A stretch of DNA of 64,000 bases from Escherichia coli. Lineage in GTDB: Bacteria; Pseudomonadota; Gammaproteobacteria; Enterobacterales; Enterobacteriaceae. A model generated the notes under the pieces. The model worked only from the letters and a program-made list of their open reading frames with translations, ran no database searches and was not told the origin of the DNA. The position numbers were made by a program, and so were the translations under genes. The DNA is taken from the NCBI RefSeq assembly GCF_003334355.1, contig NZ_QOWP01000001.1; one strand, 5' to 3'. Shown here piece after piece: positions 6,997 to 19,785 of the stretch. How positions within the stretch are numbered: the first letter of the stretch is position 1; each line of letters opens with the position of its first letter.

Positions 6997-7012
6997 CATT
7001 GTGAATTCACTC

Positions 7013-7113
7013 TTACCTGATGTGGCGAAAACGCCTTATCCGCCTACAAACGCATGAAGATTCAACATGTTGCAATAGATTTTGTAGGCCTGATGAGCGT
7101 AGCGCATCAGGCA
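7013..7113. repeat. REP/BIME-type extragenic palindromic repeats
   Basis: Two REP-like palindromic units (..GCGAAAACGCCTTATCCGCCTAC.. and GTAGGCCTGATGAGCGTAGCGCATCAGGC) in the yghA-exbD gap, resembling the REP consensus GCCGGATGCGGCG...CCTTATCCGGCCTAC. Confidence 0.7.
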
Positions 7114-7121
7114 ATTCTACT

Positions 7122-7547
7122 TTACTTCGCTTTGGCGGTTTCTTCGCCGACCAGACCTATCTTCAGGTAACCCGCCTGATGCAGCGTATCCATTACCTTC
7201 ATCAACGTCTCGTAATCGACGGTTTTGTCCGCTCGGAAGAAGATGGTGGTGTCTTTCTTGCCTTCGGTTAACGCATTCAACGCCGTAATCATTGTTTCAT
7301 CGGTGACCGGATCGTTACCGATAAACATCGAGTTGTCTGCCTTCACCGACAAATAAACCGGTTTTTCCGGGCGCGGCTGCGGCGTGCTGGTAGAAGCAGG
7401 CAAATTCACCTTCACATCTACCGTCGCTAACGGTGCCGCCACCATAAAGATAATCAGCAGAACCAACATCACGTCGATAAACGGCGTCACGTTGATGTCA
7501 TGCATTTCGCCGTTATCGTCGAGGTTTTCGTTAAGATGCATTGCCAT
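7122..7547 (-). CDS. exbD: TonB-system energizer ExbD
   Basis: 141-aa ORF MAMHLNENLDDNGEMHDINVTPFIDVMLVLLIIFMV...; matches remembered ExbD. Confidence 0.95.
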   Translation of the reverse strand: MAMHLNENLDDNGEMHDINVTPFIDVMLVLLIIFMVAAPLATVDVKVNLPASTSTPQPRPEKPVYLSVKADNSMFIGNDPVTDETMITALNALTEGKKDTTIFFRADKTVDYETLMKVMDTLHQAGYLKIGLVGEETAKAK

Positions 7548-7553
7548 CGGATA

Positions 7554-8288
7554 TTATCCTGCGCGTAATTTTTGTGCGACACGAACCGGATGCGCAGCGG
7601 CGCTGGCTTCCAGATCCAGGTCACGGCTTTGCAGCAACAATACCTGCGCTGCAACATCACCCAGCATCGCTTTAAAGCCGCCAATCTGGCGTGCAAATAC
7701 GTTATAGATAACGACCGCAGGAATCGCTGCCACGAGGCCGATTGCCGTTGCTAACAGAGCTTCTGCGATACCCGGCGCAACGACTGCCAGGTTAGTGGTC
7801 TGCGTTTGCGCGATACCAATAAAGCTGTTCATGATGCCCCAGACCGTACCAAACAGACCAACGAACGGAGAAATCGCGCCGATGGTTGCCAGATAGCCGT
7901 TACCGCGGCCCATTTGACGACCCACTGCGGCGACCCGACGCTCCAGACGGAAGCTGGTACGTTCTTTAATACCTTCGTTATCGTCGCTGCCTTCTGACAG
8001 TTCCAGCTCATTCTGCGCTTCATTGAGCAAATGCAGGCTTAAGCTTTTGCTACCAAAATCAGCGGCGATATCGTTGGCCTGGTTTAAGGAACGCGCTTCA
8101 GCCAGCAGTTGCTGCTCGCGCTTAAGGCGACGCTTCTGATTGAAGAACTCTACGCTCTTACTGAAGAAGATTGCCCAGGTGACTACGGAGGCCAAAATAA
8201 GCCCAATCATCACGCACTTAACGACAATATCGGCGTGCTGATACATACCCCAGACGGAAAGGTCCGTCTGCATTAAATTATTACCCAC
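7554..8288 (-). CDS. exbB: TonB-system energizer ExbB
   Basis: 244-aa ORF (GTG start) MGNNLMQTDLSVWGMYQHADIVVKCVMIGL...; immediately upstream of exbD. Confidence 0.95.
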   Translation of the reverse strand: MGNNLMQTDLSVWGMYQHADIVVKCVMIGLILASVVTWAIFFSKSVEFFNQKRRLKREQQLLAEARSLNQANDIAADFGSKSLSLHLLNEAQNELELSEGSDDNEGIKERTSFRLERRVAAVGRQMGRGNGYLATIGAISPFVGLFGTVWGIMNSFIGIAQTQTTNLAVVAPGIAEALLATAIGLVAAIPAVVIYNVFARQIGGFKAMLGDVAAQVLLLQSRDLDLEASAAAHPVRVAQKLRAG

Positions 8289-8351
8289 TGTGTATCTCCA
8301 GGACGCAAGTCACAAAATCTGCGCATAATAATATCAAAACGACGTCGAATT

Positions 8352-8370
8352 GATAGTCGTTCTCATTACT
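8352..8370. promoter_or_regulatory. Fur-box-like sequence upstream of exbB
   Basis: GATAGTCGTTCTCATTACT matches about 12 of 19 positions of the Fur consensus GATAATGATAATCATTATC; exbBD is an iron-regulated operon (established knowledge). Weak match. Confidence 0.35.
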
Positions 8371-8505
8371 ATTTGCATACTGCCGTACCTTTGCTTTCTT
8401 TTCCTTGCGTTTACGCAGTAAAAAAGTCACCAGCACGCCATTTGCGAAAATTTTCTGCTTTATGCCAATTCTTCAGGATGCGCCCGCGAATATTCATGCT
8501 AGTTT

Positions 8506-8521
8506 AGACATCCAGACGTAT
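8506..8521 (+). promoter_or_regulatory. Tandem MetJ met-boxes upstream of metC
   Basis: AGACATCC-AGACGTAT, two adjacent 8-bp units close to the met-box consensus AGACGTCT, about 20 bp upstream of the metC ATG. Confidence 0.55.
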
Positions 8522-8539
8522 AAAAACAGGAATCCCGAC

Positions 8540-9727
8540 ATGGCGGACAAAAAGCTTGATACTCAACTGGTGAATGCAGGACGCAGCAAAAAATACACTC
8601 TTGGCGCGGTAAATAGCGTGATTCAGCGCGCTTCTTCGCTGGTATTTGAGAGTATGGAAGCCAAAAAGCACGCGACGCGCAATCGCGCCAATGGCGAGTT
8701 GTTCTATGGACGGCGCGGAACGTTAACCCATTTTTCCTTACAACAAGCGATGTGTGAACTGGAAGGTGGCGCAGGCTGCGCGCTATTTCCCTGCGGGGCG
8801 GCAGCGGTTGCTAATTCGATTCTTGCTTTTGTCGAACAGGGCGATCATGTGTTGATGACCAACACCGCCTATGAACCGAGTCAGGATTTCTGTAGCAAAA
8901 TCCTCAGCAAACTGGGCGTAACGACATCGTGGTTTGATCCGCTGATTGGTGCCGATATCGTTAAGCATCTGCAGCCAAACACTAAAATCGTGTTTCTGGA
9001 ATCGCCAGGCTCCATCACCATGGAAGTCCACGACGTTCCGGCGATTGTTGCCGCCGTACGCAGTGTGGTGCCGGATGCCATCATTATGATCGACAACACC
9101 TGGGCAGCCGGTGTGCTGTTTAAGGCGCTGGATTTTGGCATCGATGTTTCTATTCAAGCCGCCACCAAATATCTGGTTGGGCATTCAGATGCGATGATTG
9201 GCACTGCCGTGTGCAATGCCCGTTGCTGGGAGCAGCTACGGGAAAACGCCTATCTGATGGGCCAGATGGTCGATGCCGATACCGCCTATATAACCAGCCG
9301 TGGCCTGCGCACATTAGGTGTGCGTTTGCGTCAACATCATGAAAGCAGTCTGAAAGTGGCTGAATGGCTGGCAGAACATCCGCAAGTTGCGCGAGTTAAC
9401 CACCCTGCTCTGCCTGGCAGTAAAGGACACGAATTCTGGAAACGAGACTTTACAGGTAGCAGCGGGCTATTTTCCTTTGTGCTTAAGAAAAAACTCAGTA
9501 ATGAAGAGCTGGCGAACTATCTGGATAACTTCAGTTTATTCAGCATGGCCTACTCGTGGGGCGGGTATGAATCGTTGATCCTGGCGAATCAACCAGAACA
9601 TATCGCCGCCATTCGCCCACAAGGCGAGATCGATTTTAGCGGGACCTTGATTCGCCTGCATATTGGTCTGGAAGATGTCGACGATCTGATTGCCGATCTG
9701 GACGCCGGTTTTGCGCGAATTGTATAA
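8540..9727 (+). CDS. metC: Cystathionine beta-lyase MetC
   Basis: ORF trimmed to the ATG giving 395 aa ([37 protein letters not shown]...); PLP-enzyme region around ...[10 protein letters not shown]... Confidence 0.95.
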
Positions 9728-9866
9728 CATTGCCACTTTTGGACAATTTTGCAGACATTTAATTGTGAAAAGTCTTAAATTGTTGCGTCCGGGATCAAGG
9801 CGTCCCGGACGAATCAGGAGTACAATAGGCAGATAAAGGCTTAAACGCTGTTCCACAGGAAAGTCC

Positions 9867-10526
9867 ATGGCTGTTATTCAAGATATCATCGCTGCGCTCT
9901 GGCAACACGACTTTGCCGCGCTGGCGGATCCTCATATTGTTAGCGTTGTTTACTTTGTCATGTTTGCCACGCTGTTTTTAGAAAACGGCCTGCTGCCCGC
10001 CTCATTTTTGCCAGGCGACAGCTTGTTGATACTGGCAGGAGCATTGATTGCCCAGGGGGTTATGGATTTTCTGCCTACGATTGCGATTCTGACCGCCGCA
10101 GCAAGTCTGGGCTGCTGGCTAAGTTATATTCAGGGGCGCTGGTTAGGGAATACCAAAACGGTGAAAGGCTGGCTGGCACAGCTTCCTGCTAAATATCACC
10201 AGCGCGCCACCTGCATGTTTGACCGCCACGGTCTGCTGGCGCTGCTGGCTGGACGTTTTCTTGCATTTGTCCGTACGCTGCTGCCAACCATGGCGGGAAT
10301 TTCCGGTCTGCCAAACCGCCGTTTCCAGTTTTTCAACTGGTTAAGCGGATTGCTGTGGGTCAGCGTGGTAACCAGTTTCGGCTATGCCTTAAGTATGATT
10401 CCGTTCGTTAAACGCCATGAAGATCAGGTAATGACGTTCCTGATGATCCTGCCAATTGCCTTGTTAACCGCTGGCTTGTTAGGCACGCTGTTTGTGGTGA
10501 TTAAAAAAAAATACTGTAACGCCTGA
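9867..10526 (+). CDS. yghB: DedA-family inner membrane protein YghB
   Basis: 219-aa [47 protein letters not shown]...; DedA-like hydrophobic profile. Confidence 0.9.
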
Positions 10527-14880: not shown

Positions 14881-14930
14881 GCTGAATTAAATAACAATTA
14901 GCCGGAACAATAAATAAAAGGGAACACTAT

Positions 14931-15188
14931 ATGAAAACGATTTTCACCGTGGGAGCTGTTGTTCTGGCAACCTGCTTGCTCAGTGGCTGCGTCAATGAGC
15001 AAAAGGTCAATCAGCTGGCGAGCAATGTGCAAACATTAAATGCCAAAATCGCCCGGCTTGAGCAGGATATGAAAGCACTACGCCCACAAATCTATGCTGC
15101 CAAATCCGAAGCTAACAGAGCCAATACGCGTCTTGATGCTCAGGACTATTTTGATTGCCTGCGCTGCTTGCGTATGTACGCAGAATGA
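14931..15188 (+). CDS. yqhH: Small lipoprotein YqhH (Lpp-like)
   Basis: 85-aa ORF; lipobox LLSGC in signal peptide [20 protein letters not shown]; coiled-coil-like body. Confidence 0.8.
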
Positions 15189-19047: not shown

Positions 19048-19785
19048 TTAAACTTTTCCGGCGGCTTCGCGTTCTGCGACTTCTTTATCGAGCTCGGCGA
19101 TTTTTTGTTCCATTATCGAACGACAATGGGCAGCCAGCTCACGAACCTGATCTTTGCCATACTGACTGACGTCAATTGGCGGCAGCATTTCGACAATCAC
19201 CAGACCGTTGTGCAGTCGATTAAGATTAATCTTATTCGAAGTTGTAGAGACGCACACGGGAATAATCGGGACGCCCGCCGCAATTGCCGCGTGAAATGCT
19301 CCAGTCTTGAACGGTAGCAGGCCGCGACCACGGCTGCGGGTTCCTTCCGGGAACATCCAGATGGAAATACGGCGTTTTTTGAAATGATTCACGACTTCCG
19401 CAATGGTGCCGTGAGCTTTAGTGCGATTGTTTCTGTCGATCAATAAGTTGCCGGTTAACCAGTACAACTGCCCGAAGAAGGGGATCCACAGCAAGCTCTT
19501 TTTACCTACCGTCACCGTCGGCGGTTGCACAATGTTCGATGCTGTCACCATGTCATAGTTGTTCTGGTGGTTAGCGATATAGATAGCATTGCCGTAGCTT
19601 TCAGCATCTGCAGGTTTGCGGCACTCAACTTTCAGGCCGAACAGCGGCGCAAGACGGCCAAACATATGCCCAAAGGTGGCCACATGTTTCGGGTTACGCG
19701 GGCTGAAAAGGCAGTAAATGGAGCCGAATACACAGACTAAGATGCTGTAAATCACGGTAATAATAAGACGAAAGATATATAGCAT
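19048..19785 (-). CDS. plsC: 1-acyl-sn-glycerol-3-phosphate acyltransferase PlsC
   Basis: 245-aa ORF MLYIFRLIITVIYSILV...; acyltransferase HxxxxD motif (NHQNNYD) and FPEGTR motif. Confidence 0.95.
   Translation of the reverse strand: MLYIFRLIITVIYSILVCVFGSIYCLFSPRNPKHVATFGHMFGRLAPLFGLKVECRKPADAESYGNAIYIANHQNNYDMVTASNIVQPPTVTVGKKSLLWIPFFGQLYWLTGNLLIDRNNRTKAHGTIAEVVNHFKKRRISIWMFPEGTRSRGRGLLPFKTGAFHAAIAAGVPIIPVCVSTTSNKINLNRLHNGLVIVEMLPPIDVSQYGKDQVRELAAHCRSIMEQKIAELDKEVAEREAAGKV

Follow-up and report, generated by a model that had tools for sequence, protein, structure and literature searches.

Fur and MetJ operators in the divergent exbB/metC intergenic region of Escherichia coli

The genes exbB and metC of Escherichia coli diverge from a single short spacer, raising the question of whether this DNA acts as one shared control region or as two promoters that answer separately to iron and to methionine. 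In the window analyzed here, a stretch of 64,000 nucleotides of the E. coli chromosome, the spacer occupies positions 8289–8539 (251 bp) as judged from the sequence and the list of open reading frames, precisely the coordinates and the divergent arrangement given in a preliminary description of the sequence, and it is base-for-base identical to the exbB/metC intergenic region of K-12 MG1655, between b3006 and b3008. This control region is already characterized in E. coli K-12, with its operators, its regulators and their independence all documented, and nothing in it is new; the discovery value is therefore little, and the main showing of the analysis is that real operator sites can be recognized by eye from sequence. 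The reading that we favor, and regard as very probably correct, is that the spacer contains two back-to-back and independently repressed σ70 promoters, with Fur acting on exbBD and MetJ acting on metC.

The coding sequence of exbB, specifying Ton complex subunit ExbB, runs on the minus strand over 7554–8288 from a GTG start at 8288 (open reading frame list, and K-12 annotation b3006 on identical DNA), and is followed by exbD at 7122–7547 (open reading frame list, and K-12 annotation b3005). Its Shine-Dalgarno sequence, GGAG, lies at 8296–8299 on the minus strand (CTCC on the plus strand) and is invariant in an alignment of 18 Enterobacteriaceae genera. On the plus strand metC, coding for cystathionine beta-lyase, spans 8540–9727 (K-12 annotation b3008) with an ATG start at 8540, and is preceded by the Shine-Dalgarno sequence AGGA at 8528–8531. 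The list of open reading frames begins metC instead at a TTG at 8405 (8405–9727); the 45 codons added in this way, which run over the spacer and the metboxes, are artefactual, and the conserved and annotated start is the ATG at 8540. A search of Rfam at E≤1 over positions 7000–10000 returned no RNA family.

The arrangement is nearly universal in the species. Of 5426 complete E. coli genomes, 5423 match a 421-bp query across the spacer at 95–100% identity, and the flanks of the matches are annotated as exbB and metC every time. In the E. coli lineage in which the identity is only 95%, the Fur and MetJ sites are unaltered and all of the changes lie between the two. Many E. coli genomes annotated by PGAP carry exbB (WP_000527844.1) under the name 'tol-pal system-associated acyl-CoA thioesterase', a name that seems to have been assigned in error; in the K-12 record the product is Ton complex subunit ExbB.

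The preliminary description had noticed a Fur-like sequence nearer exbB, without coordinates, and had called the match partial. We located this box at 8349–8367 as a 9-1-9 inverted repeat, ATTGATAGTCGTTCTCATT, whose centre at 8358 is 70 bp from the exbB start. Compared with the classical 19-mer GATAATGATAATCATTATC, the box agrees at only 12–13 of the 19 positions. The best match to that 19-mer anywhere in the spacer is 13/19, at 8352–8370 on the minus strand, and 29 positions of the window reach at least 13, so that consensus counting alone does not establish a Fur site. The motif TGAnAATnATTcTCA derived from ChIP-exo (PMC10164565) fits 8351–8365 with two mismatches, and the window has four such matches against 1.75 expected.

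The box was also scored with a symmetrised position weight matrix built from 16 K-12 sites with footprint or gel-shift support, not including exbB (Chen et al. 2007, PMC2189734, Table 4). The sites were carried over from U00096.2 to NC_000913.3, with the offsets checked against the distances that the paper gives from seven start codons, and all 16 align at their listed centres without shifting. With this leave-one-out matrix the Fur box scores 19.6 bits, the best of 63,982 positions in the window and inside the 19.4–29.0 bit range of the training sites, and 2 Mb of null sequence contains no position at that score. By weight matrix the box is as good as the weaker validated Fur sites. The word 'partial' thus stands as a consensus count but fails by weight matrix, and results from taking the old 19-bp consensus as the yardstick. 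The box is a clear case of a consensus count badly under-rating a site that is first-class both by weight matrix and by its invariance across genera. The second-best Fur match in the window, with 15.1 bits (TATGAAAACGATTTTCACC), is at 14930–14948 in the first codons of yqhH; it lies in coding sequence and is probably a chance match.

Published work places Fur at the same position. Chen et al. (2007, PMC2189734) give a 19.1-bit Fur site at U00096.2 coordinate 3150076, −70 from the exbB start, the centre of which is the centre of the 8349–8367 box, and an oligonucleotide of the exbB promoter was gel-shifted by 150 nM Fur in the same study. At exbB, three Fur sites clustered within 31 bp are counted by Chen et al. 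(PMC2189734), whereas our leave-one-out matrix detects one dimer site. In a nine-strain Fur ChIP-exo and RNA-seq study (PMC10164565), a peak is assigned to exbB at least in MG1655 and W3110, with published intervals corresponding to 8373–8395 for MG1655 (3150091–3150113, U00096.2) and to 8373–8385 for W3110; these coordinates were converted via W3110 together with a +1978 offset checked on seven other genes. The intervals fall 6 bp beside the Fur box, not over it, but the peak is close enough to support Fur binding in the spacer. The same study reports exbB fold-change values of 1.87–5.53 across the nine strains, lists exbB and exbD in the core regulon as upregulated on deletion of fur, and counts both as members of the Fur-2 iModulon (PMC10164565). 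The Fur-like box proposed near exbB is hence borne out by its first rank in the window, the published site, the gel shift and the ChIP-exo peak.

Two features of the DNA adjoining the Fur box are worth recording. The stretch at 8368–8378 (ACTATTTGCAT), immediately beside the box, is conserved too, and may reflect an extended occupancy by Fur. A near-palindrome at 8332–8355, TATCAAAACGAC|GTCGAATTGATA, is 83% complementary and joins the exbB −10 region to the left Fur half-site; its arms are conserved across genera and its centre is not.

MetJ is the repressor of metC, and both its binding and its repression depend on S-adenosylmethionine. The two tandem met-box-like octamers that had been pointed out near metC are AGACATCC at 8506–8513 and AGACGTAT at 8514–8521, which adjoin one another without a spacer and stand 18 nt before the metC ATG. 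Thirteen of the 16 bases of the pair fit the consensus AGACGTCT written twice in tandem, and elsewhere in the 64 kb no position does better than 11/16. A symmetrised weight matrix made from 27 published metboxes of eight other K-12 operators, with metC left out (Table S1, PMC3228920), gives the pair a score of 18.5 bits, which ranks first in the 64 kb, and 3 Mb of null sequence from a first-order Markov model contain no match of at least 18.5 bits. In the eight other K-12 operators, adjacent metbox pairs score 9.3–20.7 bits, a range that contains the metC value. Taken singly, the boxes at 8506–8513 and 8514–8521 score 9.1 and 9.4 bits and the octamers flanking them in register score −5.6 and −7.4 bits, and the operator therefore consists of exactly two metboxes. 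The same 16-mer, agacatccagacgtat, is listed as the metC site by Augustus and Spicer (2011, PMC3228920, Table S1) with 18.92 bits, two boxes and a gap of 18, in agreement with the 18 nt counted from 8521 to the ATG. Weight-matrix scans, which the preliminary description had suggested as a check, thus put both motifs far above chance and not below background. The second-best match to the metbox matrix, a pair AGACGGCC AAACATAT with 14.1 bits, lies at 19652–19667 inside plsC, and this location in coding sequence makes it probably a chance match and not an operator.

Orthologous regions, the other check that had been suggested, were collected from species-representative genomes by way of the ExbB motif WGMYQHAD, written as a degenerate DNA pattern, yielding 120 loci, in 74 of which metC lies divergently beside exbB. 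A Fur 19-mer of the form ATTGATAGTnGTT(C/A)TCATT precedes exbB in about 100 Enterobacterales loci, including those of Escherichia, Salmonella, Citrobacter, Enterobacter, Erwinia, Pantoea, Serratia, Yersinia, Dickeya and Pectobacterium, and its variation across them is essentially limited to the central, non-informative position; in the 18-genus Enterobacteriaceae alignment all 18 informative columns are invariant. The metbox pair is present in every one of the 44 Enterobacteriaceae loci scanned, 16–22 nt before the ATG and with scores of 15–19.5 bits, and the metboxes have a mean column identity of 0.93 in the 18-genus alignment. The stretch at 8425–8496 has a mean identity of 0.56 in that alignment and none of its 72 columns is invariant.

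The metC metboxes are kept only within the Enterobacteriaceae. The matrix scan found no metbox pair at metC in Erwinia, Pantoea, Yersinia, Dickeya or Brenneria, where scores are generally below 7 bits, and Serratia has a different site instead (AAACGTCTGGATGGCT, 16.3 bits, 60–73 nt from the ATG). This patchy distribution agrees with a published report that metboxes at metC occur in only about half of the enterobacterial species (PMC3228920). Six Pseudomonas loci contain a weaker Fur-like 19-mer, ATTGCAAnTAATTCTTGTT, 300–390 bp downstream of the WGMYQHAD anchor, scoring 9–15 bits with a matrix that is that of E. coli.

The position of each operator relative to its promoter bears on how repression is achieved. 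A stringent promoter and terminator scan of the spacer returned no σ70 promoter and no terminator, and a looser hexamer scan rests on weak −35 hexamers. For exbB, the looser scan reads an extended −10 element at 8325–8336 on the minus strand as TGATATTAT(TAT). This element, TGATATTATTAT, consists of two overlapping TATTAT hexamers preceded by TG; its mean column identity is 0.93 across the 18 genera, and it is at the right distance from a mapped transcription start. The exbB starts fall at 8319, 8313 and 8309 on the minus strand, as the equivalents of the dRNA-seq starts 89146, 89152 and 89156 of Shigella flexneri M90T (PMC7132871), which were placed through the exbB start coordinate and whose upstream 100-mers match the DNA of the window. 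Relative to the 8319 start the Fur box covers −30 to −48, over the −35 region, which fits the usual repression by promoter occlusion, and we infer that occlusion of the −35 region is the mode of action of Fur at exbB. Chen et al. (PMC2189734) found that 39 of 42 strong Fur clusters overlap a σ70 promoter. The Shigella M90T table (PMC7132871) labels the three exbB starts upstream of the GTG as 'secondary', and its 'primary' exbB start maps to 8278, 10 nt inside the annotated open reading frame and 5 nt before an in-frame ATG that is exbB codon 6.

The metC promoter is less directly placed. No metC start is listed in the Shigella M90T table (PMC7132871), and none was obtained from the Cappable-seq supplement or from the Kim 2012 supplement of E. 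coli and Klebsiella transcription starts. The candidate that we prefer is an extended −10 element TGcTAGTTT at 8497–8505 on the plus strand, directly before the metboxes; the boxes would then extend from about −6 to +10. Another −10-like element, TGcGAAAAT at 8443–8451, is less conserved, and offers a different account of MetJ, in which it would act as a downstream roadblock, with transcription starting near 8458 and the metboxes lying in the leader at about +48 to +63. The loose hexamer scan does choose 8443–8451, pairing a −35 hexamer AAGTCA across a 16-bp spacer with a −10 hexamer GAAAAT that has the TG, and a string resembling TTTGnnAAAAT is seen in many genera. However, this element sits within 8425–8496, the least conserved part of the spacer, whereas the TG-n-TA directly before the metboxes (8497–8501) is invariant in 18 of 18 genera. 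Buttiauxella, despite having lost about 60 bp upstream, retains the TG-n-TA and the metboxes and lacks the 8443–8451 element. We therefore consider the downstream roadblock unlikely.

With two independently repressed promoters, the region would work as follows. Transcription of exbBD would proceed on the minus strand from the extended −10 at 8325–8336, with its start close to 8319. In iron-replete cells, Fe2+-Fur dimers would occupy 8349–8367 and keep RNA polymerase off the −35 region, and less would be made of ExbB-ExbD, the complex that energises TonB-dependent uptake of iron. With S-adenosylmethionine in good supply, a pair of MetJ dimers would bind cooperatively to the adjacent metboxes at 8506–8521, just downstream of the TGnTA element, and block initiation at metC. 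Some 155 bp separate the two operators, and each would govern its own gene only.

Independence of the two controls is what the preliminary description had supposed, and published work agrees: exbB is not MetJ-regulated and a divergent exbB fusion is not repressed (PMC3228920), and metC is absent from the searched supplementary files of the Fur pan-regulon study (PMC10164565). That the spacer is instead a shared bidirectional control region, comparable to metJ/metB or fepA/fes, with Fur also modulating metC, or MetJ exbB, or both, is very improbable. Both promoters do lie within the same 251 bp, MetJ gel-shifts the spacer common to exbB and Ec.metC (PMC3228920), so that the fragment of the exbB fusion is itself bound, and exbB and metC are both among the responding genes in a CpxR study. 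Against this, the Fur and MetJ sites are far apart with each beside its own promoter, and expression of exbB-lacZ has already been reported to be unchanged in a metJ mutant compared with wild type. The suggestion that one motif match, or both, is coincidental and functionless can draw on the unremarkable consensus and ChIP-exo motif counts given above, but has virtually no probability left and is already refuted by the first rank of both sites by weight matrix, the empty null sequences, the conservation across genera and the published binding and regulation.

We take the 'Fur box' of Eick-Helmerich and Braun (1989) at exbBD to be the Fur site studied here, and the K-12 metC MetJ operator of Belfaiza et al. 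(1986) to be the MetJ operator studied here. The Fur site does not differ in sequence or centre from that of the K-12 exbBD promoter (Chen et al. 2007), and the present analysis adds only a score from a matrix that excludes exbB, the invariance of the box across genera and its placement with respect to a start mapped by dRNA-seq. The MetJ operator likewise shows no difference from the K-12 metC operator in Table S1 of PMC3228920, with the same 16-mer, the same two boxes and the same 18 nt to the ATG. The metJ/metBL and metE/metR regions resemble this one, since they too carry tandem metboxes between divergent genes, ahead of a gene for methionine biosynthesis, but there the operators have 3–4 boxes and are listed for both divergent genes, whereas at exbB/metC there are two boxes and exbB is outside MetJ control. 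Similarly, in fepA-fes and fepD-entS, as at exbB/metC, a 9-1-9 Fur site of 19 bp lies in the spacer between divergent iron-uptake genes, but both of their divergent genes belong to the Fur regulon, in contrast to exbB/metC, where only exbBD does.

The alignment of 18 Enterobacteriaceae genera also reveals a third block, at 8400–8424 (TTTCCTTGCGTTTACGCAGTAAAAA), corresponding to MG1655 3152096–3152120, which is as conserved as the metboxes, with a mean identity of 0.93 and 14 of 25 columns invariant, compared with none in the neighbouring 8425–8496. It contains a dyad, TGCG-N4-CGCA, takes the cross-genus form TTTCCTTGCG(C/T)TTACGCAGTAAA, and could be matched to no regulator; its start is always 45 bp from the centre of the Fur box, and it is confined to the Enterobacteriaceae. 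There are no further copies in the 64-kb window, and a literature search by sequence returned only unrelated papers. In a rough comparison by eye, the block shows no evident fit to the consensus sequences of FNR, CRP, PurR, PhoP, CpxR, MetR, OxyR, ArcA, σ54 or σ32. An RNA hairpin is an unlikely explanation, because the variants either alter the loop or disrupt the stem on one side, and none restores pairing by a compensatory change. We suggest tentatively that the block may be a third cis-element, a binding site for a regulator that has so far been connected with neither gene.

An FNR ChIP-chip peak has been reported within the spacer, at U00096.2 coordinate 3,150,195, corresponding to 8477 in the window, without a binding-site sequence being given (PMC1802558), and TTGAT-N4-ATCAA has no match in the spacer. 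The 8400–8424 block could be the input behind this motif-less FNR signal and behind the reported anaerobic repression of exbB. In two Buttiauxella loci and in those of Kosakonia cowanii and Atlantibacter the length of the spacer differs from that of E. coli by 60–63 bp or by 10–11 bp, and the differences all fall in the unconserved stretch between the block and the −10-like element of metC and leave the block in place; in this small sample, such near-whole-turn changes would preserve the helical phasing of the block relative to the metC side.
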